From Candidatus Iainarchaeum sp. (GTDB taxonomy: Archaea; Iainarchaeota; Iainarchaeia; Iainarchaeales; JACQJH01): DNA of 32,000 nt. The notes below the pieces were generated by a model. That model was not told where the DNA came from, did no database searches, and saw only the letters and a list, made by a program, of their open reading frames with translations. The stretch covers positions 450,001 through 482,000 of the forward strand of contig JACQJH010000001.1 of the NCBI GenBank assembly GCA_016205145.1, read 5' to 3'. Both the position numbers and the translations under genes were made by a program. Positions 4,412 to 32,000 of this stretch are shown in pieces (within the stretch, counting starts at the first letter, position 1; each line of letters starts with the position of its first letter).

Positions 4412-4452
4412 CAGAGCCTGATTCAGGCAATGTTTTTGCGGAGGAGACGGAA

Positions 4453-5130: not shown

Positions 5131-5155
5131 CGGCTGGATTGTTTTTGGTGGTGGC

Positions 5156-6034: not shown

Positions 6035-6050
6035 TGGGAGGGATGAAAAC

Positions 6051-6260: not shown

Positions 6261-6376
6261 ACTTAGGAAAGCACCGCGGCTGGCTGGAAAACGCCTTCTG
6301 GCTTCTCGTGCTCGCAGTCGCATACATTGCAATGCAAAAAGCAATGCATCCCGGCTGGACGGTTTTCGGAATCTGA
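6251..6376 (+). CDS. 41-aa single-TM peptide
   Basis: ATG 6251 overlaps the end of the previous ORF, with AGAGGGG 5 nt upstream. The hydrophobic core is AFWLLVLAVAYIAM. Confidence 0.35.
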   Translation: MPLDLGKHRGWLENAFWLLVLAVAYIAMQKAMHPGWTVFGI

Positions 6377-8189: not shown

Positions 8190-8246
8190 GCGGCTGCCCG
8201 GAACCGGTTTTAATAACTGCGTTGCGGATTCATTCCGTGGCATAAA

Positions 8247-8717: not shown

Positions 8718-8756
8718 TCTGCTTGCATTTACATACAATCTGTTGCGGTGCTTGGA

Positions 8757-9455: not shown

Positions 9456-9485
9456 GCCAATCAGGCAACCGGCAAAGGCTTCCGG

Positions 9486-9911: not shown

Positions 9912-9952
9912 TGCGGTCAGGCGGATTTATCTGGGAAAACGTTTAAATATTT

Positions 9953-9973
9953 ATATATCTAAATTTGATATAT
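9953..9973. promoter_or_regulatory. palindrome ATATATC-N7-GATATAT in the divergent promoter region
   Basis: Perfect 7-bp inverted repeat embedded in TATA-like sequence. It lies 42-62 nt from the PadR-TRASH ATG and 70-90 nt from ATG 10043. Confidence 0.45.
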
Positions 9974-10042
9974 CTGTTTTCTGGGCATCATTTTTCTGAG
10001 CGTCATTTGGGCTGGCAACAATTTTTTTTGGGGTGGTTTGCA

Positions 10043-10630
10043 ATGGTGGAAAAATCGGGTTTGCTGGCATTGGTTGTATTGGCGGGTTTAATCGCGTTGC
10101 CTGTTGCAATGGCGCAGGGTTCGGATGATTTTGCGCAGGCGAAGGCGCTGATCGACAGGAATGCGTCCTGCGGCAGCCTGAGCAGCGAACAGCTTGAACT
10201 GATCGGCGATTATGTGATGGAGCAGATCCATCCCGGCGAAGCCCACGAATATGTGGAATCGATGATGGGCGGCGAGGGCTCGGATAGCCTGAAACGGGCG
10301 CACATTGCCATGGCTTACAGGTTCTACTGTGCAGGCTTAGGTTCTGGGTTGAACGCAAACAGCCCGTATTATGGCGTAATGGGCGGCTATGGGATGATGG
10401 GTGGCATGATGTACGGCAACTATGGCGGGATGATGGGTTCTGGCAATGCCTATTCCACTTATGGGCTTATGGGATACGGCGGCGGAACCGCAAATTATCC
10501 TGGAATGATGGGCTATAATGCGTCAACCGGCGGCCTTGGCCTGCTTACGCAGGTCTTGTTTGTGGTGGCGCTTGGTCTCGCAGTTCTGTTCCTTGGCATT
10601 AAAGTCTTCGGGCAATTTCAAAAGCGGTGA
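10043..10630 (+). CDS. secreted Met/Gly/Tyr-rich protein with a C-terminal TM anchor (putative Cu(I)-binding)
   Basis: Signal-like N-terminus LLALVVLAGLIALPVAMAQG. A helical domain carries HPGEAHEYVESMMGGEG. A low-complexity stretch reads YYGVMGGYGMMGGMMYGNYGGMMGSG...PGMMGY. The tail is hydrophobic. Confidence 0.7.
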   Translation: MVEKSGLLALVVLAGLIALPVAMAQGSDDFAQAKALIDRNASCGSLSSEQLELIGDYVMEQIHPGEAHEYVESMMGGEGSDSLKRAHIAMAYRFYCAGLGSGLNANSPYYGVMGGYGMMGGMMYGNYGGMMGSGNAYSTYGLMGYGGGTANYPGMMGYNASTGGLGLLTQVLFVVALGLAVLFLGIKVFGQFQKR

Positions 10631-10680
10631 TTGAGGATTTGGGGTTGAATGTCCTGCGGGTTGTATGCCGGCCCGGAACA

Positions 10681-10727
10681 AAAGGTTTCAGCAATGCCTA
10701 TTTATGGTTTCAGCAGGAATATTTGCA
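10681..10727 (+). promoter_or_regulatory. shared promoter/operator module, copy B (AAGGTTTCAGC-N11-ATGGTTTCAGC-N7-TTTGCAT)
   Basis: It is colinear with 4365-4411. The first spacer contains a TATA-like TATTTAT. It lies 70-116 nt upstream of ATG 10797, the first gene of the cop operon. Confidence 0.55.
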
Positions 10728-10796
10728 TAGTTGTGTTTTTTTGCATCCGGTCTTTTTTATGAATTTTATGGGTGAAGGCTCTAAAGTGGTGGTCAG

Positions 10797-11228
10797 ATGA
10801 ATGAGGTTAAAGTCCAGCGTGTTTTCCTGTTGCTTGTGTTAGGCGCCCTGGTCGTGTTCGGCGGAATGGTTCTGTTTTGGTTTGGCGCTAATGCAGCGCC
10901 CGCCAGATCGGCATCGGTAAATAATCAGGGTATTGTTGCCGGAGGGAACGGCCAGGCACAGGACATTTACATCAGGGCGCTTTCAAGCGGAACCTATGAC
11001 AAAAGCGAGGTCACGGTAAAGAAAGGCGTGCCGGTCAGACTGCATTTTTCCGCTGACCCTGGCGCGGGCTGCGGAAGGTATCTGGTGCTATACGGCCTGA
11101 ACGTCAATGCGCTTTCCAAGAACGGCGAAGAAGCGGTTGTCGACTTCACGCCGCAACAGGAAGGCAGCTTTGAATACAATTGCGGTATGAGAATGTTCAA
11201 ACCCGGAACATTGAAGGTTTTGGCATGA
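10797..11228 (+). CDS. membrane-anchored cupredoxin-like domain protein
   Basis: One TM followed by VTVKKGVPVRLHFSADPGAGCGRYLV...VDFTPQQEGSFEYNCGMRMFKPGTLKV. This is the typical cupredoxin_1-type C...CGM.M pattern seen in cop operons. Confidence 0.75.
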   Translation: MNEVKVQRVFLLLVLGALVVFGGMVLFWFGANAAPARSASVNNQGIVAGGNGQAQDIYIRALSSGTYDKSEVTVKKGVPVRLHFSADPGAGCGRYLVLYGLNVNALSKNGEEAVVDFTPQQEGSFEYNCGMRMFKPGTLKVLA

Positions 11229-11701
11229 GCAGGCTTGAAGCTTTGGCCTTGGTGTTGTCGGAGCGCAGTCAGCTCGCAATATTTCTTGCGGCGTTTGCCG
11301 TGCTTTTGCCTTTGCTGGCAGTCAGCTCGGCAATAATTTCGCCGGTGGGTTTTGCGTTCAATCCTTTGGCTGAACCGCTTGGAATCGCTTTGACAATCGT
11401 CATTGCAATCCTGATGGGCCTGAACCTGACGGTCCTGTTGCATGCCCACGCACGCAATGCAAATGCAAAAAAGGGGACTGTCCTGTTCGGCGGCCTGGCG
11501 GCAACGTTTGCCACTGCCTGCCCTGTTTGCCCGCCGACATGGATTGTCCTGCTCGGCTTCGGCTCGGCCGCGGGCTTTCTTTCTGGAACCGGGATTTTCA
11601 TTGCAATTGGCAGCATAGTCTTGCTTTCATTGGCTCTTTACAATTCTTTGGGTTGCGCAGACGGAAACTGCGGGGTGGACAAGAATGGAAAAAATGATTA
11701 A
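11225..11701 (+). CDS. 4-TM membrane protein, CxxC paralog 3 (TM3 ACPVCP, C-terminal GCADGNCG)
   Basis: ATG 11225 overlaps the cupredoxin stop (ATGA). Cys99/102 lie in TM3 and Cys144/149 at the C-terminus. Same architecture as the other two paralogs. Confidence 0.75.
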   Translation: MSRLEALALVLSERSQLAIFLAAFAVLLPLLAVSSAIISPVGFAFNPLAEPLGIALTIVIAILMGLNLTVLLHAHARNANAKKGTVLFGGLAATFATACPVCPPTWIVLLGFGSAAGFLSGTGIFIAIGSIVLLSLALYNSLGCADGNCGVDKNGKND

Positions 11702-11888
11702 AGTGAAAGGCATGCATTGTAAGTCATGCGAAATCCTTGTCGCGGACTCCGTGTCTGAAATCAGCGGCGTGGAAAGCGTCAAGGCGGACAGCAGGAAGGG
11801 AACTGTTGTGGTGAATGTCCGGGATGCCGGGATTCTCGGCAGGGTGAAAGCCGCGATTGAAAAGGAAGGCTACAAGGTGGAAAACTGA
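11685..11888 (+). CDS. copZ: CopZ-like heavy-metal-associated (HMA) copper chaperone
   Basis: 67 aa with a GMHCKSC motif and a ferredoxin-like HMA length. GGGGTGGA lies 5 nt upstream. Confidence 0.88.
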   Translation: MEKMIKVKGMHCKSCEILVADSVSEISGVESVKADSRKGTVVVNVRDAGILGRVKAAIEKEGYKVEN

Positions 11889-12808
11889 TGGAATTCGAAC
11901 TTGAACTTGGCGGAATGTCCTGCGGCTCATGCGAGCGCATAATCGAAAAGGTTGCCGAGAAAGCCGGCGCGGAAGTCAAGGAAATCGACTCGCGCAAAGG
12001 CAGGGTCACAATCGTTTCCGAGGAATCCAAAATAGCCGGAATAAGGGAAGAGCTTGCCAAGCGCGGCTTTGCCGAAAAGGGCAGCAGGGAAGACGTGGGC
12101 AGGGGCGACCTGAAAAACGTTGTTGGCTACATTTTGGCAGTGCTGTCAATCCAGCCGCACGTCGAAGAGGAAGCCAGGCTCGTCAACCACGCCATTGCGT
12201 CCGCGATTATTTTGGCTGGGCTGAACATTCTGGCTTACCTGTTTTTTGTGCAGGGCCTGGAGAACGGCGAAAAGTACCTTCCATTCCTTGCATTGGCGAT
12301 TGTTGCGTCAATAACATCCGTTTTCGCGTACCTTCACGCCAAATGCTACCGTAAAATCATGTCCTGCCAGAACGGCATGATGGTCGGAATGACCATGGGC
12401 ATGGTTCCGGGCTTCATGGTCGGCGCAATCATTGCCGCGACAAACGGAATGTTTCTTGGCAGCGTGGCCGGAATTCTGACCGGCGCATGGCTTGGCCTGA
12501 AGAGCGGAAAATGCTGCGGCGTAATGGGCGCAATGGAAGGAGTCATGGCCGGCCTGATGTCCGGTTTGATGGGGCCGATGACAGTGATCATGACCCTCAA
12601 CGACAACATGCTCGTTCTGCTTTACCTGATTTTCGGAATCTCTGTTTTTTTGCTCGGCGGCCTGAGCTACATGCTGTACCGCGAGGAAGGCGAAACCCCG
12701 GTTGCGAACACAAAGCTGCCGGAATTCATTGTTCTCGGCATTGCGTTCAATCTTGTGCTGCTGGCGATAATGCTTTTTGCGGTTAAGGGGCCATTGAGGT
12801 TCGTGTGA
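11888..12808 (+). CDS. HMA domain fused to a Met/Gly/Cys-rich ~7-TM membrane domain (unknown family)
   Basis: The N-terminal 62 aa form an HMA domain with GMSCGSC. After a charged linker come TM segments including [18 protein letters not shown] and [30 protein letters not shown] overlap joins it to copZ. Confidence 0.75.
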
Positions 12809-12818
12809 GGGCGATGGC

Positions 12819-15275
12819 ATGAAAAAAATCACAGTCGGCATTAAAGGCATGCATTGCGCTTCCTGCGCCACGATAATCGAGCGTCGCCTCAAAAAAGTTG
12901 AAGGCGTGAAGGATGTCTCTGTCAGCGTCGCGGCAAACAGGGCGGCGATCGAATTTGATGAGGGCATTGCGGGCATTGAACAGTTTGGAAAGGCAGTGGA
13001 AAGTGCAGGGTACGAACTCGTCCAGCCGCAGGGGCAGGATTCCGGCGATGCGAAGATAACAATGCATGTAAAGGGCATGGATTCGCCGCATTGTGCGGGC
13101 ATTGTCGGGAATGCGCTCAAGGGAACCGCTGGAGTGAAAAAATTCGACCTCAGCTTCCAGAATGCCTCGGCAATGGTTGAATTCGATGCCTCCATCACCG
13201 GCTTTGATAAAATAAAGGCTTCGATTGCAAGGGCAGGCTATGATGCGGAACTGCTTGTCGGGGAGGAAACAGTGGACCAGGAGAAGGCCGCACGCGATAA
13301 AGAAATCGCGGAATTGAAGCGCAGGCTCGTTTTTTCGGCATTGCTGACCGTGCCGGTTGTCCTGCTTGCATTGCCGGAAATGCTGAAAACTGTTATGGCA
13401 TTCGAGTACCCGCAGTTCATAATGCAGAACATGGCTGCATTGCAATTGCTGTTTTCAACGCCGGTGATGTACCTTAACAGGGACATGTTTGTGAGGGGCT
13501 TCAGGGGGCTGTTGAATAACATGCCGGGCATGGACAGCCTTGTCGCTTTGGGCGTCGGGACAACCTATGCTTACAGCGCAATCGTGGCCCTGCGCATCAT
13601 TGGCGGAGTCATGTATTTTGAAACCGCTGCTTTGCTTCTCACGTTCATATTGCTTGGCAGGTACCTTGAGGCGATTGCCAAAGGAAAGACTTCCGAGGCA
13701 ATCAAGCGCCTTGTAGGGCTTGCGCCGAAAACCGCAATCGTGGTCAGGGCAGGAAAAGAGGTTGAAATTCCGATCAAGGAAGTTGTTGTCGGGGACATTG
13801 TCATTGTGAAGCCGGGCAGCAAGATTCCGGTTGACGGCGTCATAGTCGAAGGCGAAAGCAGCATTGACGAGAGCATGATTACAGGGGAGAGCATGCCCGT
13901 GCACAAGCGAAAAAATGACATTGTGATCGGCGGGACAATCAACGGCAATGGCTCTTTCAGGTTCAGGGCGACAAAAATCGGCAAGGACACAATGCTTGCG
14001 CAGATAATCCGTTTGGTGGAGGACGCGCAGGCAAGCAAGGCGCCGATCCAGAAGCTTGCAGACACTGTCGCAGGCTATTTTGTGCACGCAGTAATAGTGC
14101 TTGCATTGCTTGCCTTCGCTTACTGGTATTTCGTGGCAGGCCAGCCGTTTCTTTTCGCGCTCACAATCCTTGTTTCAACGCTTGTGATTTCCTGTCCTTG
14201 CGCAATGGGCCTTGCAACCCCGACAGCGGTCATGATTGGAACCGGCAAGGGCGCCGAGAACGGCGTGCTCATAAAAAACGCGGAGAGCCTTGAAATCCTG
14301 CATCAGGCCAAAACCTTTGTGTTCGACAAGACCGGCACAATCACCATGGGAAAGGCGTCGGTAACGGAAATCGTTCCGGTCGGAATCAAGGCAGCCGACC
14401 TTCTTTGCCTTGCGGCTTCCGCGGAAAAGAATTCCGAGCATCATTTAGCGCAGGCAATCGTGAAAAAGGCGAAGGAATCGAGGCTGAAAATTGCAGAACC
14501 GAAATCTTTCAAGGCGATTCCGGGGCATGGCGTCGAGGCAAAAGTCGGGGCGAAGAATGTTCTCATCGGAACTGTTGTCCTGATGAAAAAAAGCGGGGTC
14601 CGGATCGGAAACGATTTGGTTGGCAGGATGCAGTCGCTTGAAGAGCAGGGAAAAAGCGTTGTCCTTGTTTCGTCGGACGGAAAGCTTGTGGGAATGGTTG
14701 CGATTGCCGACACCATAAAAGAGCATGCTGCCGAGGCTGTAAGGCAATTGCAGGCAATGGGTTATGAAACCGTCATGATAACCGGCGACAATTCCCGCAC
14801 TGCAAACGCGATTGCAAAGCAGGCAGGCATTTCAAGGGTGCTGGCGCAGGTGCTTCCGTCGGACAAGGCCGCGGAAGTCAAGAAATTGCAGTTGAACGGA
14901 AGAAAGGTTGCCTTTGTCGGCGACGGCATAAACGATGCCCCGGCCTTGGCGCAGGCCGACATTGGAATCGCGATTGGCAGCGGCACCGACGTTGCGATTG
15001 AAAGCGGCGGAATAGTTTTGGTGAAAAGCGATTTGCGCGACATTGTGACGGCGGTAAAGCTTAGCAAATACACTCTCGGCAAAATAAAGCAGAATCTGTT
15101 CTGGGCTTTCGGCTACAATGCGGTCGGCATTCCGCTCGCGGCAGGCGCATTCTATCCTTTCACCGGCTGGCTTTTGTCGCCGGTCATAGCCGGAGCGGCA
15201 ATGGCTTTCAGCTCGGTAAGCGTTGTTTCGAACAGCCTGCTCATGCGCGGATGGAAACCGGATAAAAAGGTTTGA
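12819..15275 (+). CDS. copA: Cu(I)-translocating P1B-type ATPase
   Basis: 818 aa. HMA1 has GMHCASC. HMA2 is degenerate (GMDSPHCAG). It carries the TM CPC motif ([11 protein letters not shown]), DKTGT, MITGDN and GDGINDAP. Confidence 0.95.
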
Positions 15276-23278: not shown

Positions 23279-26200
23279 TCAGTAGATTATTTCCTTGCCT
23301 TTCATCGCGTCCAGGAAAATCGTGCGGTTCTTTCCGTCATAGCTTTTCAGCCTTCCCTCGTATGCCGGCATGTAAACGGTTTCGATTTTTTTGACGACGA
23401 TCTTGCTCCACAGCCTTTTCAACGATTCCGCCGCCTGTTCCTTTGAAACGCGCGGGGCCTCGATTGCCACGGATTCCTGCTGTTTCAATGGCAGGCCGTG
23501 CAGCGAATTCATTATGGGGTGCAGCGGGTTTGCGGGCAAATCAACGCTCTCGTTTAGCCTGAAGGAAGTTTCATTGTTCGCGGTTTCAATTTTGATTATG
23601 TTCTTGTCCGCGAGGCTTTTCAGCAGCCTCCTGAGCCTGGCCTCGTCCATGCCGGTTTTCTGCATCAATGCTTCCAGGCCGGCCTTATCCTTTTTGAGAG
23701 CGTTGAAGAGAATCGCCTCGTTTTCGTTCAGCTGCGAAAATTCCTTGAATCCGCGTGACTCCAAAAACTCGTTTCCGGCATAGTGCAGGAATTCGCCGCT
23801 CAGGGAATTGACGTATGCCTCGCCGACATTGAAAATTTCCTTGGAGCCGAAATAGTTGAATTTGAACGCGAAAACGGGAATGAATTTGAGGTAAACGCTT
23901 TCCAGCATCTCCTCCTTTCCGAAAAATCCCAAAAACTTTTTTTGCCGCATGGCATTGAACGCTTTTCTCGCGGCTTCCTCATTGACCTGCACCGGAAACG
24001 CGAGCAGTTCCGGCGGTTCCTGCACTCCGGCTGCGGTTTCAGGTTTCGGCGCCTCTTCCTTCAAAACCTTCTTTTCGATTTCCTCCGCCTTTCTTGTCGC
24101 CTCTTCGAGCTTTTTCTCCATTTCCTCTTCGTAGCCGGGCACGCTCACGGTCTGCTTTTCGGAGTCAAATTCTATTCCCTTGCGGTCGAGCTGTTCCATT
24201 ATGTCCGATGGTTCAATGTTCGCCTTGAACTTGTTGTTGACAGTGTTTATGATCTGGCGGATTTTTTCAAGCTCAATCACGCCTTCCTTTTCAATTTTGG
24301 CGAGGCACATTTCCAATGCAAGCTTTTTCGCCTTCTCCGGATCCAGGTCCTTCGACAGTTCTGCGGTTTCAGCTTCCCTGCCTTCGTGCTGTGACATTCT
24401 CGGCCTGACCCTCATTACGAACGCCCTGCTTGTCTCCTCGCGCCTGTCGCCGGTAAGCGCGGTTCCAACGGGAAGCGTTTTGATGAACGTGGGCTTCCTG
24501 AATTTTTTTGGAATCAGGGTGGGAGTCCTCTTGAAAACGGATTTTATGTCGTCGTCGAAGACAAGCTTGTGCGTCATTATTATGTCAAGCTGTGACAGCA
24601 CGTGCGAGTCGATTGCAGACGGCTGTTGTGTTGCGAAGACAAGCGAGCAGCCGGGCTGGCGGCCCTGCTTCACATATTCTATGAGCGAAGTTGTCGCAGG
24701 CGTCTTGACGTTTCCGCTCGGAATGAGCGTATGCGCCTCGTCTATGAACAGCCATGTCGGCGGAATCTCAAGCTCCATCATTTCATCCGCATCAACAGTC
24801 TTGTGCCTGCTAGCCGCCTCACGCCTTGTGGTTTTTTTGCGCGCTGCAAGAATGCGCCTGCCAAGAATGCCTATGACCAGCGCGGAAACATTGTCCTCAA
24901 GGAAAGAGGTGTCGATGATTGTGAGCTGGTTTTCCATGCTCAGTTCGCCCAGAGGTGTGCCCTTATCGGAGAAAACGCCCCAGTTTTTTGCGGCGTCAAA
25001 CCTTGAAACCAGCGCCCTGATAGAATCGGGCTTGTAGCCCTTGTCCGAGGAATGCAGTTCCTTGTCGTTTTCAAGGCAGTTTATCAGGTCGTCAAGCGTG
25101 TAATTGCCTTTTTTTCCCGCAATTTTCGGTCCTTCCTTCTGCTCGTAGCCGCTTCTCACCTTTGAAATGACCTTTTCTATGAGCAGGCCGCTCGGCGAAA
25201 ACCTTTCAATGCCGAATGTGAGGCACCAGTCGTCGGTTGAAAGCAATGAGGCGTGCATGGAAAACGTCGCGTCAAACGTTCCGCCCGGCACCTGGTCCTT
25301 GACTCCCGCAGGAATGAATACCTTGAGGTTGTCCAAACCCTGCGGTGTCAGATCCCATTTTGCAAGCATGCCAATTTCCCTTTCATCCTTGTTCGGGAAC
25401 CTCATCGACCAGAACACGCCGATGGGGTCTATCACGATTATGCCGACGTTCTTGTTTTTGTGCGCCAGCTCTTCCGCGAGAACGCCCAAAACGTAAGACT
25501 TTCCGGATCCGCGGGCACCGTTCACGAAAATGACGTGCGGGTTGAGGCTGTCCACCAATACATTGAAATCGTTGAGTTCGGAGTCCTGCACTTTTCCGAC
25601 AAACAGGCCGGCTTCCTCGCCGTACTTTTCAAACAACGACTTTTTCCTGCCGATGAACGCAATCTTTTTTTTCTCGTCAGACAATAAGCTGAGTTCGAAC
25701 CTGCCGCCTTCCTCGTCTCTCTCCTTCTCTTTCTCGGTTTTCGCCTCGACCGGGTTTGGCTTGTGCTGGTCGGAATAAATGTCCGCTTCGCGGATGCCGA
25801 CTTCCTTGTCGAACGGCAGGAGTTCATCCTTCTGCGCGTAAATGGATGCCTTCTCCAGAATGACGTCCTTTATCTGCTGCTTGTCCTCTTCCTCCAAGGC
25901 GATTTGTTCAAGCTCGTCGTTCATTTCAAGGTCGTCAGCTGCCTGCTTTTTGGCCTTGACTCCCGCCGCATCTAAATCCGTTTCCGCGCCTTTTCCCGCC
26001 CTGCCTTCGCCGGCAATGCCATTCCCGCTTTCCTTTGCCGCGGCGTTTTGGGCGGGTTTTTGTTTCGCCTGCCTTTTCCTTTTCACGCGCTTTTCATCGG
26101 GCGCCGCGCTTTCAATAACGGTTTCGTTTTCGAACCCGGCTTTTTCGGCCGGAACGCCTTTTCCTTTTTCCGCTGTTTCCGGCGCGTTTTCTTCTGTTAT

Positions 26201-26404
26201 GTTTTCGCCTTCTTCGCCCGCGCTTTTCGCCTTTTTTTCGGCTTTTTCCTTCAGTTCAATGGTCTTTTTCTTCCTTGCCTCGCGCGCCGCCTTGCGCTCG
26301 TTGCTTTCGCCCAAGACCTCGTCGAAAATGTCCTTGTCGTCCTCGACAAAAGAGGTCTCAATGACCTTCTCGTCATCGCTTTCGCTGGCTTCGGCTTCAG
26401 GCAT
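23279..26404 (-). CDS. 1041-aa FtsK/HerA-superfamily (DUF87-like) P-loop ATPase with an E/K-rich N-terminal disordered region and a C-terminal wHTH-containing extension
   Basis: Walker A VIFVNGARGSGKSY, Walker B WLFIDEAHTLIP, and SLVFATQQPSAIDSHVLSQLD plus VRPRMSQHEG typical of HerA-like ATPases. Residues 1-250 are low-complexity E/K/A. The C-terminus carries a wHTH-like stretch GLEALMQKTGMDEARLRRLLKSLADKNII. Confidence 0.8.
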   Translation of the reverse strand: MPEAEASESDDEKVIETSFVEDDKDIFDEVLGESNERKAAREARKKKTIELKEKAEKKAKSAGEEGENITEENAPETAEKGKGVPAEKAGFENETVIESAAPDEKRVKRKRQAKQKPAQNAAAKESGNGIAGEGRAGKGAETDLDAAGVKAKKQAADDLEMNDELEQIALEEEDKQQIKDVILEKASIYAQKDELLPFDKEVGIREADIYSDQHKPNPVEAKTEKEKERDEEGGRFELSLLSDEKKKIAFIGRKKSLFEKYGEEAGLFVGKVQDSELNDFNVLVDSLNPHVIFVNGARGSGKSYVLGVLAEELAHKNKNVGIIVIDPIGVFWSMRFPNKDEREIGMLAKWDLTPQGLDNLKVFIPAGVKDQVPGGTFDATFSMHASLLSTDDWCLTFGIERFSPSGLLIEKVISKVRSGYEQKEGPKIAGKKGNYTLDDLINCLENDKELHSSDKGYKPDSIRALVSRFDAAKNWGVFSDKGTPLGELSMENQLTIIDTSFLEDNVSALVIGILGRRILAARKKTTRREAASRHKTVDADEMMELEIPPTWLFIDEAHTLIPSGNVKTPATTSLIEYVKQGRQPGCSLVFATQQPSAIDSHVLSQLDIIMTHKLVFDDDIKSVFKRTPTLIPKKFRKPTFIKTLPVGTALTGDRREETSRAFVMRVRPRMSQHEGREAETAELSKDLDPEKAKKLALEMCLAKIEKEGVIELEKIRQIINTVNNKFKANIEPSDIMEQLDRKGIEFDSEKQTVSVPGYEEEMEKKLEEATRKAEEIEKKVLKEEAPKPETAAGVQEPPELLAFPVQVNEEAARKAFNAMRQKKFLGFFGKEEMLESVYLKFIPVFAFKFNYFGSKEIFNVGEAYVNSLSGEFLHYAGNEFLESRGFKEFSQLNENEAILFNALKKDKAGLEALMQKTGMDEARLRRLLKSLADKNIIKIETANNETSFRLNESVDLPANPLHPIMNSLHGLPLKQQESVAIEAPRVSKEQAAESLKRLWSKIVVKKIETVYMPAYEGRLKSYDGKNRTIFLDAMKGKEIIY

Positions 26405-26516
26405 GGAAAAACCAAGCTATATTGTGTGTTTTCATATATTTATGTTTTCTCTGCCGCGGCAAGAATTCTTAAATATTAGTTAAGGTTTTAGTAGGTGGGG
26501 TTGTCAAGGTAATTGA

Positions 26517-28394
26517 ATGTCCGCGTTTTCTTCTGATGAAACGGGCCAAGTCCCGGTAGCCTTGAAATTGCTCGCCGTGCTTGCCATCATCGCGTTCGTG
26601 CTTGCCCTTGTTTCATTGGGCCGGAACGGGCAGGCAAACCTTGCGGGCCGGTTTGCCGGAGCGCAAGCCGATTTTGGCGGAACATGCCTGTTCGGGGATT
26701 TTTTCTGCTTTTCCGGATCAGGCGGGGCGCAGGATTCATTCGAAGGGGATTCGGCTGTTTCCGGTTCAGGTTTCGATTATGCAAATGAGCCGGGCATGCC
26801 GGAAGCCGGCGGCGGTTTTTATGGCGGCTATGATTCCGGCGCGGCGCCGGAAGATTTTGGCGCCGGCCCGGAAACGGGTTCGGACCCTGATTATGGCGGC
26901 CAAAGAGGCGCGCCTTCCGGAAGCGGACTGCCGGAAATTTACGGTTCGGTCCAGCCGGCCGGCAGTTTTGGTGGCGTGAACGCCGGAAAAAGCGTTCTTG
27001 ACAGGGAAAGGCCGCCCGTCAGGATGCCAAAAAACCTGCCCCAGTCATCCGAAAAATCCGGTCCGAAAGCTGTTGCGGCCTCTTTTGAAAAGTATTCCTC
27101 GGACTATCCGCCAGAATGCAAAGAGCATTGCCCGTCGGTCACGGTTTTCTGTTTGCCGGAAGGCCAACTTGCGGATGAATGCGGTGAAGGCGCCACTGCC
27201 TGTGCGGATGAGGCTTCCTGTGAAATCAGCCTGCTTGATTCGGCCTGCGGGTCTGCGGGAATAAGCTCTGGAACATATCCTGCCGGTGAAATCGAGGATA
27301 TTTTGAACGATGCCAAGGAAAAGTCCGCGCCAGGGCCAGATGAGGCGGAGGACATTTGCACGCTGGAACACGAATTCAGGCACATCTGCGACCCTGATGA
27401 CAGGCCGCCCGGTTCCCGCCAGCAATGCACCGAAGTTTATGCCGAAGTCTACGAGGACAAGTGCATGAACGACTTTGCCGAGGCGAACTGCGGCGAAAAC
27501 CAGAATTGGACCGATGAGCAGTGCGGCGACCTTTGCGGCAGAATAGAGTACGGCAATTATGTGCGCAAGTGGGATGACTGCATGTGCCAGAATGCGGTTT
27601 CGGCAGAGGGCAAGTACAGCACCGGTTCAACCGGCTCATCCGACTGCTGTTCTTGCATAAGCCAGTGCACGGCCTATGGCGATAATATGGCGATGCCGCA
27701 GGCATGCATTGACAAGGGCTTTGTCAACCAGAAGGACGCCCAAAGCGCGTGCGCCGGCATTTCAAAAGCGGGAAGCGGCCACGGCTGCGACTATTGGAGC
27801 AGTGACGAGCACGACGAAGCCCAGATTTTCGGCCAGTGCGGCGGCCCCGGCATCTTTCTCGGCTGCTGTTCCGGTTACCCTTCCGGGCAAAACCCGTGGC
27901 CGGGAAACAAATGCGAAAGCTGTGACGCGCTTTTGGCATTGCAGGTTCCTGTCGGCGACGACGGAAAAACAGACTATGCCCTGCTTAAAACGCAGAGGCT
28001 TGAGGCGGTTGCAAAAGCCTGCAATGGCGCTCCCGCCAATTTCGATTCCGAGTTCAAAGACGGTTCCGATGGGCAGATATTGGAAGTTTGCGTGGTCTGC
28101 AACGACCCGTGCCGGCCCTGCTATCAGCAGGCGGGCGGAACAACATCTTCATGTTTTCCGAAAGGGCCTGCAGGCACTTGCGCCCCTGAAAAGGATGATG
28201 CCGCGCTTTTGGGCTTGATCAAAAACATTGCAAAGGGCAGCGGAGTCTGCGCAAATCCTTTGACGGCTTATATGACAAGCATGCAGGCCGGCCCGTACTG
28301 CGGCCAGGCGTGCTGTGCCGACTATAGCTGCCCACTCCCAGAATATGGCAACACCACTCCAGGCATTGCCGGATGCGTGCTCTGCGATAGTTAA
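26517..28394 (+). CDS. N-terminally anchored, extremely Cys-rich (44 Cys) surface protein
   Basis: A TM at residues ~14-34 is followed by a G/S/D/Y-rich linker, then a ~430-aa region with 42 Cys (CC, CxC, CxxC and CxxxC spacings). GGTGGGG lies upstream of the ATG. It is divergent from the HerA-like gene. Confidence 0.75.
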   Translation: MSAFSSDETGQVPVALKLLAVLAIIAFVLALVSLGRNGQANLAGRFAGAQADFGGTCLFGDFFCFSGSGGAQDSFEGDSAVSGSGFDYANEPGMPEAGGGFYGGYDSGAAPEDFGAGPETGSDPDYGGQRGAPSGSGLPEIYGSVQPAGSFGGVNAGKSVLDRERPPVRMPKNLPQSSEKSGPKAVAASFEKYSSDYPPECKEHCPSVTVFCLPEGQLADECGEGATACADEASCEISLLDSACGSAGISSGTYPAGEIEDILNDAKEKSAPGPDEAEDICTLEHEFRHICDPDDRPPGSRQQCTEVYAEVYEDKCMNDFAEANCGENQNWTDEQCGDLCGRIEYGNYVRKWDDCMCQNAVSAEGKYSTGSTGSSDCCSCISQCTAYGDNMAMPQACIDKGFVNQKDAQSACAGISKAGSGHGCDYWSSDEHDEAQIFGQCGGPGIFLGCCSGYPSGQNPWPGNKCESCDALLALQVPVGDDGKTDYALLKTQRLEAVAKACNGAPANFDSEFKDGSDGQILEVCVVCNDPCRPCYQQAGGTTSSCFPKGPAGTCAPEKDDAALLGLIKNIAKGSGVCANPLTAYMTSMQAGPYCGQACCADYSCPLPEYGNTTPGIAGCVLCDS

Positions 28395-28459
28395 GAAACC
28401 TGGCTGTGCGGCTTTGGCTTTTGGCAAGTTATCTTTAAATACTTTCCCGAAACCAATAT

Positions 28460-30157
28460 TTGCGAGAGTTATGCCAAGTGATTCACTTTGGGTTCGCGAG
28501 TGATTCTTCTTCTGTAAACCTGCATAGCTTTCAGCACGCAAAAAAAGGCTCAATCTGCCCAACATTCAAGACCGTCCAGACATCAAACAGTTTTGATGCA
28601 ACCGGGTTTTTCGCAAAACTCTCCGATTACGGCAGGAAGGAAAACTGCATTTTGTTTGAAAGCGCGGACATAGTCAAAAAGTACGGCGAGCACAGCATCG
28701 GCTCCTCTTCGCCCTGCCTGAAAGTTTCCGGAAAAGGCGCGAAATTCGGGATTCTTGCCCTCAATGCGACCGGCGAAAGGTTCCTGAAATTCCTCCACAC
28801 CCGCCTGGGCTTCTGTGACAGTGTCAAATTCGCTAAAACGAAAATCTCCGGCTCGCTCAAGCCGAAAGCGCAGGGCGTTTCCGAGGAGGAAAGGCTGAAG
28901 CTGAAAACGCACGCCGACATTCTGCGGCAGATTGCTTTCGCATTGAAGCCAGCCGGCTTGGCCGTGCCATTCCCTGCTTATGCCGGCTTGTTCGGCGCGA
29001 TTTCCTATGACTTCATAGACCAGTTCGAGTTCCTGCCGAAAAACAGGGCAGACCCGCTCAAGGACCCGGATTACGAACTGTTCTTCCTTGACAATTTGTT
29101 CCACTGCAACCATGCAAAAAAAACTCTCACTTTCGTGGCAAATGCCCTGCTCTTTGACGGCACGAAAAAAGAAATGGAAAATGAAAAAACGCGCTGCCTT
29201 GCGAAAATCGCGGAAATGGAAGCCGCGCTCGCAATGCCCCTGCCAAAAAAACGCAGGTTCAAAACGCGCGCCGGCAATGCGCAAAAAATGTCAACCGACT
29301 GCGCAAAAAAAGATTTCATCAAAACCGTTGAAAAGTGCAGGGAAAACATCCTGGCGGGCGACGTTTTCCAGATAGTGCCCAGCCGCACAAGCATCGTTCC
29401 CTATTCCGCCGAGCCGCTGGACATTTATTCCGAACTCAAAAAACTCAATCCCTCGCCTTACATGTTTTTCGTGAATGCGAAAAGCGGCATCCTGCTAGGA
29501 AGCTCGCCGGAAACGTTTTTGCGCGTGCAGGCAAAGAATGGCAAAGGCGGAAAGTATGAAAAATCCGTTGAAATCCGGCCGATTGCTGGAACGAGGCCGC
29601 GGGGCAAAACCGAAGCAGAGGACGCGGCCTTTGAAAAAGAACTCCTCTCCGATGAAAAGGAACTGGCCGAGCACACGATGCTGATCGACCTGGCGCGCAA
29701 CGACGTGGCACGCGTTTCGATTCCCGGCACAAGGCGCGTTGAAACTCCGTATCATGTCGAAAAGTATTCGCACGTCCAGCACATTGTTTCAAACGTTCTT
29801 GGCACATTGAAGCCGGAGCTTGACTGCCTGCACGCTTATCTTGCAAGCATGAACATGGGCACTTTGACAGGCGCGCCCAAGGTGAAGGCAATGGAGTTGT
29901 TGCGCCGTTATGAGAAGACAAAGCGCGGCTTTTACGGGGGAAGCGTTGCCTATATCACTCCATCAGGAGAGCTTGACTCCGCAATCGTCATCAGGAGCGC
30001 GAGGCTGAAAAACGGCAAGGCGTTTGTGCGCGCCGGCGCAGGCATTGTCTTCGATTCGGTGCCGGAAAAGGAATTCGATGAAACCGGGCGCAAGGCGCAG
30101 GCCTGCCTGAATGCAATCGAAAGCGCGAACAAAAAAGCCGGGGCGGCGGGAAAATGA
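28460..30157 (+). CDS. trpE: anthranilate synthase component I
   Basis: Contains ILFESAD, NPSPYMFF, SSPETFLRV, RPIAGTRPRG, AEHTMLIDLARNDV, GAPKVKAMELL and RGFYGGSVAYI. The start is uncertain: TTG 28460 or GTG 28478, with no ATG nearby. Confidence 0.9.
   Translation: MRELCQVIHFGFASDSSSVNLHSFQHAKKGSICPTFKTVQTSNSFDATGFFAKLSDYGRKENCILFESADIVKKYGEHSIGSSSPCLKVSGKGAKFGILALNATGERFLKFLHTRLGFCDSVKFAKTKISGSLKPKAQGVSEEERLKLKTHADILRQIAFALKPAGLAVPFPAYAGLFGAISYDFIDQFEFLPKNRADPLKDPDYELFFLDNLFHCNHAKKTLTFVANALLFDGTKKEMENEKTRCLAKIAEMEAALAMPLPKKRRFKTRAGNAQKMSTDCAKKDFIKTVEKCRENILAGDVFQIVPSRTSIVPYSAEPLDIYSELKKLNPSPYMFFVNAKSGILLGSSPETFLRVQAKNGKGGKYEKSVEIRPIAGTRPRGKTEAEDAAFEKELLSDEKELAEHTMLIDLARNDVARVSIPGTRRVETPYHVEKYSHVQHIVSNVLGTLKPELDCLHAYLASMNMGTLTGAPKVKAMELLRRYEKTKRGFYGGSVAYITPSGELDSAIVIRSARLKNGKAFVRAGAGIVFDSVPEKEFDETGRKAQACLNAIESANKKAGAAGK
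30142..30157 (+). repeat. 16-bp direct repeat GGCGGCGGGAAAATGA, left copy (trpE stop / doc start)
   Basis: Identical to 30653-30668. Both copies encode ...AAGK-stop and contain the overlapping ATG of the next ORF. Confidence 0.8.
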
Positions 30158-30534
30158 CTGCAATTATTAACCTGTCTTTTGATGAAGCTATGGCAGTTTA
30201 TGAGGAAGTCATGCTTGCAACGGATTCGAAACCGGCTGTCAGGATTTCCGGCACTTTGGAGCACATCCTGCTTTCATGCGAGAATTCGTTTAACGGCGAA
30301 AATGATGCCTTGTTTTTCAAGGCGGCTTTTTTGCTAAAGGAAATAATTTCAAAGCACCCTTTTATGGATGGAAACAAGCGCGGCGCTCTGGCCATAACCG
30401 ATGCTTTTCTGAGCCAAAACGGACAATTTTTGGAGTTTGAAAGGCAGGATGTGGCATTTTTGGAAGAAATAGACTTCAAAAAACTGCGGGTTGGCACGAT
30501 AAAAAAATTTTTGGAGAAAAAGGTGAAAGTCTAA
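30154..30534 (+). CDS. doc: Doc (death-on-curing) / Fic-fold toxin
   Basis: 126 aa. HPFMDGNKR (nt 30355-30381) matches the Doc motif HxFx(D/N)(A/G)NKR. The ATG overlaps the trpE stop (ATGA). Confidence 0.8.
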   Translation: MTAIINLSFDEAMAVYEEVMLATDSKPAVRISGTLEHILLSCENSFNGENDALFFKAAFLLKEIISKHPFMDGNKRGALAITDAFLSQNGQFLEFERQDVAFLEEIDFKKLRVGTIKKFLEKKVKV

Positions 30535-30668
30535 TGGCTCGCCAAAACCTTGTAAATTTCAATGTTCCTTTTGACTACTTTGCGGGCAACTTTCCTGAAT
30601 TTTTCGTCAGCCATATTAATATCTCTGCGATAAGTGCATTTAAACATTTGCAGGCGGCGGGAAAATGA
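30534..30668 (+). CDS. 44-codon ORF linking doc to the next gene (possible antitoxin or by-product of the insertion)
   Basis: Its ATG overlaps the doc TAA (TAATG) and its TGA overlaps the next ATG (ATGA). The peptide is MARQNLVNFNVPFDYFAGNFPEFFVSHINISAISAFKHLQAAGK. The last 4 codons duplicate the trpE 3' end. Confidence 0.25.
   Translation: MARQNLVNFNVPFDYFAGNFPEFFVSHINISAISAFKHLQAAGK
30653..30668 (+). repeat. 16-bp direct repeat GGCGGCGGGAAAATGA, right copy
   Basis: It lies 511 bp downstream of the left copy and brackets doc plus 134 nt. Confidence 0.8.
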
Positions 30669-31465
30669 GCAGCAAACAAAGAACACCGGTTTCACCCACA
30701 AGCCGGCTGAGAAATTTGATAGCCGATTCTTATTTCAGGGCGTCTCCTCGTGCCAAAACGGATTTGCGCACGGGGCTGAGTGAAGGCCACGGAGGGAGTC
30801 ATCCGGATTATCCGAACAGGGGCGCAATGAATGTTTTTGAGGTAATTGATGATGGGAAACCGTTAAGGGGCATTAGGAAAAGTTTCCAATTGGCTCTGCG
30901 TCTTGTGGCTGATTTCCATGGCCGGCCGGCAACTGGCATTTTGAGAATGGGCAAAGCAGGAATAAGGCGCAAAGTTAGCGGCGAAGCGGCACATCTTCTT
31001 CCGGGGCACGGGCTTGCCGGGCCACAATTTGTTGAGCAGAAGATTTTTGAAAATGTTCCGCCCGACAAACTTGAGCTTTTCATTGATATTGCCAGAAAAA
31101 ATAAGGGCGAGCCGTTGGCGAGGTTTCTGGAACGTGAAACGGTTTCCGGAATATATTCTGATGAGGAACGGGCAGCCCTTTGCGAAGGGTTTCCGACCGT
31201 CGGCAGGCTTTTGGCGGCCGTAAGGGCCGGTTTGCTTGTAAAGCTGACCGAACAGGCGATAGTAGAACTTGCATATGCGCACAGAGTGCAACTTCCGAAA
31301 CCGTTTACTGGCAGGCCCCTAAAAACGCACGTGATTTTGGAATATCTTGCGCCAAAATATCCTTCGCGCGAGGCGATGATTGCCGACATTGAACGGGTTG
31401 TGCAAGAAATTCCCGGGTACCAGTTTGTTGCCGAACTGGAAAGAGTTGAAGGTGAAAAAAGATGA
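30665..31465 (+). CDS. hypothetical 266-aa protein inside the trp operon
   Basis: Its start and stop both sit in ATGA overlaps (with the 44-codon ORF and with trpG). The first ~54 aa are S/R/P-rich and may be non-coding; ATG 30827 (MNVFEVIDDGKPL) is an alternative start. I recognise no motif. Confidence 0.55.
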   Translation: MSSKQRTPVSPTSRLRNLIADSYFRASPRAKTDLRTGLSEGHGGSHPDYPNRGAMNVFEVIDDGKPLRGIRKSFQLALRLVADFHGRPATGILRMGKAGIRRKVSGEAAHLLPGHGLAGPQFVEQKIFENVPPDKLELFIDIARKNKGEPLARFLERETVSGIYSDEERAALCEGFPTVGRLLAAVRAGLLVKLTEQAIVELAYAHRVQLPKPFTGRPLKTHVILEYLAPKYPSREAMIADIERVVQEIPGYQFVAELERVEGEKR

Positions 31466-32000
31466 GCAAAGGCAAAAGAGGAAAAGGCGCGCGAGGCAAG
31501 GGCATCAACGTTTTGTTCATCGACAACTTCGATTCTTTTACATACAATCTTGTGGACGAGTTTGCGAAACGCGGTTGCCGCGTGAAGGTTTTCCGCAACA
31601 ACATCGCCATCGCAAAAATCAAAAGCGAGGCGAAAAAGTTCAAGGCTCGGCTGATTGTCATTTCGCCCGGCCCCTCGACGCCGGAGCGCGCGGGCAATTC
31701 TATTGCGGTCATAAAAGAGTTTGCCGGAAAAATCCCGGTTTTCGGCGTTTGCCTTGGCCTGCAGGCAATGGTTGTTGCCTTCGGCGGAAAGGTTGCAAGG
31801 GCGCCTGAAACCGTGCACGGCAAGCCGTCTGACGTGGTGCATGACGGCAGAACCATTTTTGAAGGAATTACAAATCCTTTTTCGGCGGGAAGGTATCATT
31901 CCCTTTGCGCTGTCAAAGTGCCATCCTGCCTGCAGGTTTCGGCTTTGTCGGAGTCGAAAGTCGTCATGGCTTTGCGGCACGAAAAATCGGGGAAGACTTT
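31462..32000 (+). CDS. trpG: anthranilate synthase component II (glutamine amidotransferase), 3' end outside the window
   Basis: This ORF is not in the supplied track because it has no stop within the window. My translation is MSKGKRGKGARGKGINVLFIDNFDSFTYNLVDEF...ISPGPSTP...PVFGVCLGLQAM...GRYHSL, which carries the class-I GATase signature with catalytic Cys. Confidence 0.9.
   Translation, partial: MSKGKRGKGARGKGINVLFIDNFDSFTYNLVDEFAKRGCRVKVFRNNIAIAKIKSEAKKFKARLIVISPGPSTPERAGNSIAVIKEFAGKIPVFGVCLGLQAMVVAFGGKVARAPETVHGKPSDVVHDGRTIFEGITNPFSAGRYHSLCAVKVPSCLQVSALSESKVVMALRHEKSGKT

Follow-up and report, generated by a model that had tools for sequence, protein, structure and literature searches.

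A Doc cassette in the trpE stop/start overlap of an archaeal tryptophan operon, flanked by a junction repeat and accompanied by a candidate convergent antitoxin

Genes and repeat at the trpE-trpG junction

The window analysed here, a 32,000-nt stretch of a Candidatus Iainarchaeum sp. contig, ends within a trpEGDCBA operon of which trpE is the first gene and whose remaining genes are found on contig L001. A TATA-like TTTAAA can be read from the sequence upstream of trpE, at 28434-28439. The trpE and trpG genes are separated by a gene for a Doc-family protein (doc), a short open frame (ORF44) and an orphan gene (ORF266), and a 27-codon gene lies on the opposite strand (Table 1). On the plus strand every gene is joined to the next by an overlap of stop and start codons, which reads TAATG between doc and ORF44 and ATGA at the trpE-doc, ORF44-ORF266 and ORF266-trpG junctions. 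The trpE-doc overlap is part of the 16-mer GGCGGCGGGAAAATGA, which recurs 511 nt downstream at the ORF44-ORF266 overlap; the window contains no further match even with two mismatches permitted, and two matches were reached in none of 100 dinucleotide shuffles. The original prediction, made from the letters of this DNA, had described both the two copies of the 16-mer and the unbroken chain of overlaps from trpE to trpG. The two copies are indeed the sole pair in the window, and the chain is kept in relatives as well. It had also described doc as encoding a kinase-type motif, HPFMDGNKR, and as lacking an upstream antitoxin, and here too it was right: the product has the fold of Doc in addition to the motif, and a scan covering 24 larger ORFs of the window turned up no gene resembling phd. 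An Rfam search over positions 29900-31600 returned no match.

Table 1. Features of the trpE-trpG region, in window coordinates
Feature	Position	Strand	Remarks
trpE, anthranilate synthase component I, 559 aa	28478..30157	+	Pfam Chorismate_bind 1.5e-78, Anth_synt_I_N
Left copy of 16-nt direct repeat	30142..30157	+	Final trpE codons (GAAGK), TGA stop, ATG of doc
doc, 126-aa Doc-family (Fic fold) protein	30154..30534	+	Profile, PDB and fold matches
Catalytic motif HPFMDGNKR, Doc residues 68-76	30355..30381	+	Fits Doc-type HxFx(D/N)(A/G)NKR
27-codon gene MADEKFRKVARKVVKRNIEIYKVLASH, candidate 'headless' antitoxin	30531..30614	-	Converges on doc, stop codons overlap
'ORF44', bridging frame from doc stop (TAATG) to duplicated junction (ATGA)	30534..30668	+	Stop-free frame
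TTTAAA, putative archaeal TATA box of leaderless transcript	30639..30644	-	24 nt upstream of minus-strand ATG
Right copy of 16-nt direct repeat	30653..30668	+	End of ORF44 (QAAGK, stop), ATG of ORF266
ORF266, orphan protein	30665..31465	+	Separate insert between doc cassette and trpG
trpG, anthranilate synthase component II	31462..32000, runs past window end	+	Pfam GATase 3.7e-44; complete on L001

The assignment of doc is supported by several collections. Its product matches Pfam Fic (PF02661) with an E-value of 2.6e-9 and 38.2 bits (cutoff 24), PHROG 577 ('Doc-like toxin') over its full length at 8.8e-15, and the PDB Doc chains 9vzc_A (5e-10) and 3k33_A (2e-4). With NCBIfam TIGR01550 (DOC_P1) it scores 38.4 bits, just short of the curated cutoff of 38.65. 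The best PDB fold matches of its AF2 model (pLDDT 86.2, pTM 0.84) are the Doc chains of phage P1 (3DD7, 3K33), with TM 0.79-0.80 and rmsd 2.7. In the catalytic motif a lysine replaces the second glycine of Fic AMPylases, and the residues H, F, D, G, N, K and R are invariant across 11 family members. The duplicated host junction supplies the start codon of doc, a gene with neither a promoter nor a spacer of its own; since it is translated from the ATG of the host junction, Doc should be made only as part of the trp operon message.

Distribution and age of the cassette

Comparison with related DPANN genomes reveals what the locus looks like without these genes. In 72 of 77 relatives trpE adjoins trpG, about 35 of them having a plain ATGA overlap in a junction of the GGxGG...AAAATGA type, and the empty junctions are of the same kind of sequence as the repeat. 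No match to Doc, ORF44 or ORF266 was found in the relatives with adjacent trpE and trpG. Because trpE abuts trpG directly in relatives, and because the repeat consists of host junction sequence, doc and ORF266 can be recognized as inserts, and the empty sites bear out the earlier proposal of an insertion into the native trpE junction, with the repeat as its duplicate. The 551-nt gap between trpE and trpG in L071 holds no cassette: it is occupied by an unrelated gene for a helical protein, in a bacterial genome with ordinary intergenic spacers.

The Doc subfamily to which the window protein belongs is rare, with about 12 representatives in 5.8 billion proteins and a score that falls from 167 bits within it to 78 for the nearest Docs outside, and it is found at trpE-trpG or pyrD-pyrK in eight other loci. 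Each of these gene pairs encodes subunits of one enzyme. The cassette occupies trpE-trpG in the window and in L084, and pyrD-pyrK in L086, L095 and L096. In L097 an unrelated gene, ORF230, follows doc before pyrK; in L098 the order is pyrD, doc and HAD; in L085 doc is placed between a homologue of ORF266 and trpG; and in L087 and L088/L089 doc is free-standing. In a TrpE comparison that asked whether the lineages bearing the cassette are sisters, all pairs were about 60-64% identical.

Exact flanking repeats are present in six loci (window, 16/16; L086, 15 nt; L096, 18; L097, 17; L095, 13; L098, 12, or 19/22 when extended), with a period of 506-516 nt, and they have decayed in L084 and L085. 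The two copies are identical within each genome and different between genomes. Between lineages, synonymous pyrD sites have undergone six substitutions, and each of these has its counterpart in the second copy. The repeats are thus a case of concerted evolution. A third sequence complementary to them, through which RNA pairing might impose such co-variation, was sought, and nothing conserved was found. It could also be argued that no duplication took place and that the repeat reflects convergent selection alone, a Shine-Dalgarno-like stretch followed by ATGA being needed at both sites. The junctions in these operons do share GGxG...ATGA features, and it is because of these features that unrelated inserted genes encode similar C-termini (GEKR, KEND). 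Nonetheless, exact identity over 12-18 nt in six loci, in a sequence that differs between loci, and the lack of a second copy in all 100 shuffles speak against this idea, the mirrored pyrD substitutions refute it as the sole cause, and we give it next to no weight.

The original prediction took the duplicated junction for an insertion scar, which would most simply imply that a doc-bearing mobile element transposed recently into the trpE junction and left a 16-bp target-site duplication behind. Such an event would be in keeping with a perfect repeat made of host junction sequence, with the emptiness of the site in most relatives, with the occurrence of the cassette at two kinds of host junction as well as free-standing, and with the lower GC and GC3 of doc (0.42 and 0.48, versus 0.52 and 0.62-0.64 in the trp genes). 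The low GC, however, is common to every locus, doc lying below its neighbours in step with the GC of the host, and the divergence of doc is that of a long-standing resident. At synonymous sites it has diverged as far as the host genes have (pS 0.61-0.78 versus 0.49-0.84), and the identity of Doc follows that of the host proteins, with 85, 74, 76 and 62% for Doc against 90, 82, 72 and 61% for PyrD and, between the window and L084, 64% for Doc, 62% for TrpE and 65% for TrpG. The same site is filled in lineages only about 62% identical in TrpE, the same cassette is found at pyrD-pyrK in five other lineages, and the repeats of L084 and L085 have decayed. Nor is there any sign of recent movement. 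The only genes of the cassette are doc and the 27-codon ORF, with no transposase or integrase; its ends are coding or promoter sequence with no terminal inverted repeats; each locus has a single copy, with no near-identical copies at different sites; and a scan of viral contigs yielded no relatives. The cassette thus resembles a transposable element in being flanked, in six loci, by direct 12-18 nt repeats of the target, but it lacks a mobilising enzyme. With a pN/pS of 0.14-0.32, doc is under purifying selection. The cassette is hence old, vertically inherited and maintained by purifying selection, and a fresh insertion appears improbable.

The minus-strand gene, the bridging frame and ORF266

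Within the stretch labelled ORF44, on the opposite strand, sits the 27-codon ORF, which the earlier reader overlooked. It is present, with its length unchanged, in all nine loci that cover its position, and annotation pipelines left it uncalled in every locus examined. Its pN/pS is 0.14-0.33 (about 0.2), versus 0.6-1.2 for the opposite frame, and the mean BLOSUM pair score is 58 on its strand versus 33 in the ORF44 frame. A TTTAAA precedes its ATG by 24-25 nt in eight of the nine loci, L095 having TTTATAAA at that place, and it may act as a promoter; runs of at least five T follow the gene on the minus strand in all nine, those of the window lying at about 30500-30522. The peptide is basic (charge +2 to +6), amphipathic and not hydrophobic, and there is no simple charge match between the two proteins, because the net charge of Doc varies from -3 to +10 across loci.

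A possible role for this peptide is suggested by the nearest Docs outside the subfamily (loci L099-L104 and L094; 28-33% identity), which are paired with antitoxins of 74-78 aa carrying a ribbon-helix-helix (RHH) head, as identified by Pfam in L099 and judged by eye in L094. The 27-residue peptide can be aligned from one end to the other with the last 25 residues of these antitoxins (VRPEVMAHYRASLERNRKLYELLAQ; KFRKELGIILAEDQDILKDLADEK). An hhalign comparison places peptide positions 2-26 on antitoxin positions 54-78 of 78 (P 0.0017), and in a column-shuffle test the best ungapped placement of the peptide fell on the C-terminal tail in three of three antitoxins (z 5.0, 5.1 and 2.9). In contrast to the arrangement seen here, the RHH antitoxin genes lie upstream of doc, co-directional with it and abutting or overlapping it, and the modules are not embedded in biosynthetic operons. 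Searches with the peptide against Pfam, NCBIfam, PADLOC and PDB assigned it to no family, with chance matches only in Pfam and PDB. Its profile HMM fails to retrieve the RHH antitoxin tails (E far above 1), and the claim of homology therefore leans on a short, position-anchored similarity. Run against about 20,000 ORF segments from all fetched loci, the same HMM found family members only; the one extra match, in L064 (E 0.014), is an out-of-frame, lysine-rich stretch within a trp gene. The likeness of the peptide to P1 Phd proved no better than that of shuffled sequences.

In the original prediction it was ORF44 or ORF266 that might neutralise Doc, from a downstream position and hence in the reverse of the usual toxin-antitoxin gene order. 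Both are translationally linked to doc, every locus has an open plus-strand frame corresponding to ORF44, and the ORF266 homologue of L085 again lies beside doc. Yet the amino acid sequence of ORF44 is not conserved, its pN/pS being near 1, and the ORF lacks its start in L086 and ends early in L085. ORF266, in turn, is lacking in six of the eight other embedded loci, being missing from L084, L086, L095, L096 and L098 and giving way to ORF230 in L097, and it is found upstream of doc in L085. A neutralising role for either ORF is accordingly very unlikely, and the likely partner of Doc, to judge from its conservation, its TATA-like box and its likeness to antitoxin tails, is the minus-strand 27-codon gene.

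ORF44 would seem to serve a different end. The plus-strand frame is open from the doc stop onwards in all loci; its own stop overlaps the next ATG in six of them and falls 4, 9 and 23 nt short of it in L084, L089 and L085, respectively. In four loci the spacer contains another frame without stops, and the openness of the bridging frame is partly a consequence of codon choice in the minus-strand gene; the probabilities attached to it are nominal, as the loci are not independent. ORF44 thus probably carries ribosomes onward to the next gene rather than encoding a conserved protein.

ORF266 begins with ATGAGCA, as trpG does, and its GC3 is 0.47 versus about 0.62 in the trp genes. It belongs to no family in Pfam, NCBIfam, PADLOC or PHROG; a word-index search and two exhaustive protein searches gave no homologue, just a fragment of ORF266 itself; and its single homologue, on L085, is 31% identical (E 2e-30). 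A single-sequence AF2 model reached a pLDDT of 44, too low for a fold search. ORF266 was rejected both as a mobilising enzyme and as an antitoxin, since most cassette loci do without it and in L085 it has switched sides. It entered this junction later and on its own, as an insert unrelated to the doc cassette.

Comparison with known systems and a proposed explanation

Known Doc toxins come in modules of two genes, the upstream one encoding a DNA-binding antitoxin. The Phd-Doc pair of phage P1 is a type II toxin-antitoxin system in which Doc, a Fic-fold kinase, phosphorylates EF-Tu. The window protein shares with P1 Doc its fold (TM 0.80), its size (126 aa) and the Doc-type motif HxFxDxNKR, with DGNKR in place of DANKR and a sequence identity of about 20%; the host being an archaeon, its putative target would be aEF1A. 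The canonical layout is a single autoregulated two-gene operon with a co-directional antitoxin gene upstream, whose product joins a DNA-binding domain (Phd/YefM, RHH or AbrB) to a toxin-binding tail. It is not found at these loci, where trpE, pyrD or the ORF266 homologue takes that place and its stop overlaps the ATG of doc; an upstream antitoxin gene is seen only with the nearest outgroup Docs. Unlike Phd-Doc, the system described here has no upstream antitoxin, no DNA-binding domain, no promoter dedicated to the toxin and no two-gene operon, and its candidate partner is a 27-residue peptide encoded downstream on the opposite strand. A precedent for a partner reduced to a tail can nevertheless be found in P1 Doc, crystallised together with just the C-terminal part of Phd (title of 3DD7).

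Convergent arrangements are typical of type I loci such as fst/RNAII and txpA/ratA, where 3'-overlapping transcripts produce a small hydrophobic toxin peptide and an RNA antitoxin. As in those loci, the partner transcript would overlap the 3' end of the toxin gene, but here the candidate toxin is a 126-aa enzyme and the partner ORF is under selection at the protein level (pN/pS about 0.2). Another small partner of a Fic-fold protein is YhfG, which is specific to Enterobacteria, is encoded co-directionally with its toxin and acts through an inhibitory (S/T)xxxE(G/N) helix. Antitoxins of this Fic-YhfG (FicT-FicA) group are small, helical and positively charged (Makarova et al. 2009, PMC2701414), and the 27-residue peptide likewise would be a small, basic and helical partner; it differs from them in lacking the (S/T)xxxE(G/N) motif and in facing a Doc-type toxin rather than an AMPylase. 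Non-trp genes of unknown role have been reported within trp operons, at trpB/trpA and trpF/trpB (Xie et al. 2003, as cited in PMC2395257). The passages of PMC2395257 on trp inserts mention neither Doc nor a junction duplication, and no such report was found in the literature searched.

Taken together, these data lead us to favour, with moderate confidence, the view that an old Doc cassette of 0.5 kb, delimited on either side by the 16-nt repeat, has settled in the trpE stop/start overlap and is equipped with a convergent, tail-only antitoxin candidate and a bridge for translational coupling. The 27-residue peptide would bind Doc much as the C-terminal tail of an RHH or Phd antitoxin does, without a DNA-binding head. 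Ribosomes finishing doc would be led along the open plus-strand frame to the start codon that follows, and coupling from trpE to trpG could thereby survive the insert. Doc output would track expression of the operon and the peptide would be made from an independent, opposing promoter; given these separate promoters, strong operon transcription could shift the balance towards free Doc, which in turn might phosphorylate the elongation factor and so slow translation. Another reading is that the pair merely makes the cassette difficult to lose. As for the repeats, each copy adjoins a host gene, and recombination or templated repair might keep it in step with that gene, which would explain why the two remain identical.

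Long vertical inheritance at two enzyme-subunit junctions fits a domesticated regulator as well as a toxin. Doc might thus be a kinase that regulates the enzymes between whose genes it sits, or the translation of their operons, with the peptide as its modulator. Purifying selection as strong as that on the adjoining enzymes, the fact that the cassette always follows the first cistron, where genes for subunits of a heteromeric enzyme meet, and the retained translational coupling to the upstream gene would all agree with such a role. On the other hand, one close-knit subfamily spans two unrelated enzyme systems and includes free-standing copies, its catalytic motif and fold are those of classical Doc, its partner peptide resembles antitoxin tails, and most relatives dispense with the cassette. 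Domestication consequently seems unlikely, although it deserves some weight. Returning to the cassette with a tail-only antitoxin, a fuller version can be sketched, for which our confidence is similarly low. According to it, a selfish or regulatory cassette would reside in operons as a promoterless doc using the host start codon, with a convergent tail-only antitoxin under its own promoter and a non-coding bridge. It would persist as a long-lived presence/absence polymorphism, its repeats homogenised either through recombination with alleles that lack the cassette or through rounds of homology-guided excision and re-integration that need no dedicated recombinase, and in DPANN archaea it would couple translation arrest to the expression of operons for amino-acid and nucleotide biosynthesis.

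The arrangement departs from the two-gene layout of Doc modules, in that Doc is here the passenger of a biosynthetic operon, paired with a convergent 27-codon gene in a cassette through which host translational coupling appears to run. If the peptide is an antitoxin, it would be among the smallest known, and the toxin-binding tail alone could be a free-standing gene. DPANN genomes are reduced, and a toxin wired to nutrient-biosynthesis operons could therefore provide them with a simple growth brake. The identity of the repeats within each genome, a small and clean instance of concerted evolution, makes the population dynamics of the cassette testable. Finally, the recurrence of the cassette at trpE-trpG and pyrD-pyrK, together with a Nudix insert in L011, points to a general rule by which genes enter tightly coupled operons without breaking them: the Nudix insert, a different gene, is built in the same way, its junction repeat matching at 13/15 positions and its bridge running to 15 codons.

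The native trpE/trpG junction and its insert

The 16-nt direct repeat noted at the trpE/doc and ORF44/ORF266 junctions is present at both; it has no further copy in the window with two mismatches allowed, and two copies arose in 0 of 100 dinucleotide shuffles of the window. In the left copy, the last few codons of trpE run into its TGA stop, which the start codon of doc overlaps; the right copy consists of the end of ORF44 (the plus-strand frame following doc), which again reads AAGK-stop, plus the ORF266 ATG. Pfam recognizes TrpE, a Fic/Doc protein and TrpG among the window ORFs and gives no match for ORF44 or ORF266. On a same-strain contig (L001) the operon order is trpE, doc, ORF44, ORF266, trpG, trpD, trpC, trpB, trpA, and the nearest TrpE proteins (56-64% identical) come from Iainarchaeum, Woesearchaeota and Nanoarchaeota MAGs.

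An empty site was sought among 77 relatives with trpE and trpG both on the DNA compared. The two genes adjoin in 72 of them, where Doc, ORF44 and ORF266 find no match, and about 35 show a simple 4-nt ATGA overlap preceded by GGxGG...AAA. These uninterrupted junctions are of the same sequence type as the window repeat, which therefore represents a duplicated host junction. The predicted insertion thus holds as an insert into a native junction, but not in its extent: beyond the 511 nt separating the repeats, the entire 1308 nt from trpE to trpG is extra DNA.

Features of the window and of the comparison loci (L handles)
Feature	Locus and position	Strand	Remarks
Direct repeat GGCGGCGGGAAAATGA	window, 30142-30157 and 30653-30668	+	16 nt; sequence match
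27-codon ORF MADEKFRKVARKVVKRNIEIYKVLASH	window, 30614 to 30531	-	stop codon overlaps doc stop
ATGAGCA starts	window, 30661-30671 and 31458-31468		ORF266, trpG
TrpG extension MSKGKRGKGARGKG	window, 31462-31530		N-terminal
Thioredoxin/DsbD-type genes	window, 2072-6034		
Copper-handling cluster	window, 6465-15275		
HerA-like ATPase; Cys-rich protein	window, 23279-28394	- (ATPase)	1041 aa; 625 aa
Cassette-flanking repeat GGGTGCAGCGCATGG	L086		15 nt
Cassette-flanking repeat GGTGCAGCGCATGGGTGA	L096		18 nt
Cassette-flanking repeat AAGGGGCGCTGCGCATG	L097		17 nt
Cassette-flanking repeat GGGTGTTGCTCAT	L095		13 nt
Cassette-flanking repeat GGGCAGCGCATG	L098		12 nt; 19/22 when extended
trpE-doc-trpG	L084		
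ORF266 homologue-doc-trpG	L085		homologue, L085:3-842
pyrD-doc-pyrK	L086, L095, L096		L095 doc, 5950-6339
pyrD-doc-ORF230-pyrK	L097		ORF230 (230 aa), L097:994-1686
pyrD-doc-HAD hydrolase	L098		
Free-standing doc	L087, L088/L089		upstream region AT-rich
Uncharacterised gene	L085:1972-2301		after trpG
Nudix-type hydrolase gene	L011:2100-2760		at trpE|trpG
Doc-like genes	L091:1090-1600; L093:2218-2710		

Recurrence and age of the cassette

The window Doc matches Fic/Doc profiles of Pfam and PHROG as well as PDB Doc chains, scores just under the cutoff of the NCBIfam DOC_P1 profile, and its confident structure model superposes on P1 Doc, a kinase of EF-Tu, with a TM of 0.80. An initial protein search retrieved only four relatives, a subfamily that profile search enlarged to about 12 representatives, with scores falling from 167 bits within it to 78 bits for ordinary Docs; the motif HxFxDGNKR is invariant among the members aligned. 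At L095 (motif HTFMDGNKR) doc has ATA in place of its ATG, and the gene call begins at an internal Met (112 aa); this may be a decaying copy. Downstream of more distant Doc-like genes (L091, L093; local protein identity 36-43%) lies a short ORF in the same orientation, helical and E/K/L-rich (e.g. MVTPEEKRLVAEIMKQHDELLRSLNSGPKKVIE), which may be another type of small downstream partner.

The cassette (doc plus a 27-codon minus-strand ORF) recurs in trp and pyr operons, and Doc tracks its host: Doc identities of 85, 74, 76 and 62% accompany PyrD identities of 90, 82, 72 and 61%, and between the window and L084 the values are 64% for Doc, 62% for TrpE and 65% for TrpG. Synonymous divergence is likewise as high in doc (0.61-0.78) as in the host gene 5' of it (0.49-0.84), hence the cassette has been inherited with these operons since the lineages split. 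It is old and, with a doc pN/pS of 0.14-0.32, under selection. The GC content of doc lies about 10 points below its neighbours at every locus and tracks host GC, a pattern more in keeping with residence and a composition rich in Lys, Glu and Ile than with a recent arrival. No relatives turned up in the viral contigs scanned.

The flanking repeats recur with a period of 506-516 nt and have decayed at L084 and L085. In the pyrD group they encode the PyrD tail, GAAHG (L086, L096, L097, L098) or GVAHK (L095), and the second copy mirrors six of six lineage-distinguishing nucleotide substitutions, three of which, at L097 and L098, leave the encoded PyrD tail unchanged. Because synonymous divergence elsewhere is saturated, such mirroring is concerted evolution and not a fresh insertion scar. 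Repeat identity is complete beside the ATG and weakens with distance from it, and no third, complementary sequence was found near the repeats. Templated repair from one copy to the other is an alternative; we favour recombination with conspecific alleles that lack the cassette, which would keep both copies matched to the single-copy junction because each is contiguous with a host gene.

ORF266 has no family (Pfam, NCBIfam, PADLOC, PHROG) and no homologue in large protein databases. Its sole relative, at L085 (31% identity, E 2e-30), lies upstream of doc, and it is missing at the other cassette loci, which argues against its proposed role as neutraliser; it is a separate insert, later than the cassette. 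ORF230 at L097 occupies the equivalent position, between cassette and pyrK, belongs to no family and lacks similarity to ORF266. ORF266 and trpG share the start ATGAGCA, with AAA(A/G) before both, and ORF230 (ATGACTAAAAG) and pyrK (ATGACTGAAAAG) share ATGACT.AAAAG. Both pairs look like additional small junction duplications, the ATGAGCA pair being perhaps a second, shorter one from ORF266 insertion. At L085 an uncharacterised gene takes the expected place of trpD.

The minus-strand ORF and the proposed bridging frame

The 27-codon ORF is found, at identical length, at all nine loci covering the region. Its pN/pS is 0.14-0.33, versus 0.6-1.2 for the codon-aligned plus-strand frame (five closer pairs), and its mean BLOSUM pair score is 58 versus 33. 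TTTAAA lies 24-25 nt 5' of its ATG at eight of nine loci (TTTATAAA occupies the position at L095), the spacing expected where a TATA box drives a leaderless transcript in archaea, and is a putative box of this kind; same-strand runs of at least five Ts lie downstream at 9/9 loci.

The encoded peptide is basic and amphipathic and matches no described family (Pfam, NCBIfam, PADLOC, PHROG, PDB). The closest Docs outside the subfamily are arranged classically: a gene for 77-78 aa lies upstream and abuts doc, and one of these upstream proteins has a Pfam RHH head. In hhalign, peptide positions 2-26 pair with antitoxin positions 54-78 of 78 (P 0.0017, probability only 16%), and a column-permutation test without gaps places the peptide profile best on the C-terminal tail of each of the three antitoxins tried (z 5.0, 5.1, 2.9), but a plain HMM search against antitoxin tails stayed below significance. 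The best-supported reading therefore makes the peptide a candidate tail-only antitoxin; P1 Doc crystallised with the Phd C-terminal domain alone (3DD7) offers a precedent.

ORF44, the other proposed neutraliser, is also a poor candidate: its amino-acid sequence is unconstrained, and its ATG, the reverse complement of the peptide's last His codon, is missing in L086. The overlapping stop/start chain, on the other hand, is read as a conserved design. A single plus-strand frame is stop-free from the doc stop to one terminal stop at 9/9 loci, whereas the remaining frames hold up to 11 stops; the terminal stop overlaps the next ATG at six loci and precedes it by 4 nt (L084), 9 nt (L089) or 23 nt (L085). 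For such a frame to stay open, TTA, CTA and TCA codons must be absent from the minus-strand gene (nominal probability 10^-2.3 over nine loci), and the promoter spacer must likewise be devoid of in-frame stops (10^-3.8 over six loci); the loci are non-independent, and at four of them the spacer has another stop-free frame. This frame may be a bridge carrying ribosomes from doc to the next start codon. In an Iainarchaeum MAG (L011), an unrelated Nudix-type hydrolase gene inserted at trpE|trpG shows the same design of junction repeat plus bridge: the junction is duplicated (GGTGTTCCGGAATGA / GGTGGTCCGCAATGA, 13/15), and a 15-codon ORF (MNAPFIGNFVLGGPQ), a diverged trpG-start copy, leads to trpG with an ATGA overlap at each end.

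Possible function and surrounding genes

The comparisons establish how the cassette is built, how old it is, that it recurs under selection and how its repeats behave. In the mechanism proposed, Doc output would be proportional to translation of the operon's first gene, and the peptide, expressed from the opposing promoter, would neutralise Doc. Heavy operon transcription may repress the convergent promoter, which would release Doc and slow translation. It is just as likely that the pair does no more than hinder cassette loss from an essential operon, where loss would be tolerated solely as an exact repeat-to-repeat deletion. Doc as a domesticated regulatory kinase is a serious rival. In the literature searched there is no report of Doc cassettes lodged within operons for biosynthesis, of a mini-antitoxin gene converging on its toxin gene, or of a duplicated junction combined with a bridge; trp operons containing non-trp genes (Xie et al. 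2003, cited in PMC2395257) and Fic proteins with small basic partners (PMC2701414) are known in other forms.

The window TrpG carries a Lys/Gly/Arg-rich N-terminal extension absent from relatives, and TrpG at L015 a Lys-rich one of about 60 residues. Elsewhere in the window lie thioredoxin/DsbD-type genes, a copper-handling cluster that comprises a multicopper oxidase, a cupredoxin-like protein, a TRASH-domain PadR regulator and an HMA-domain P-type ATPase, a HerA-like ATPase gene and, immediately upstream of the trp operon, a Cys-rich protein without family.
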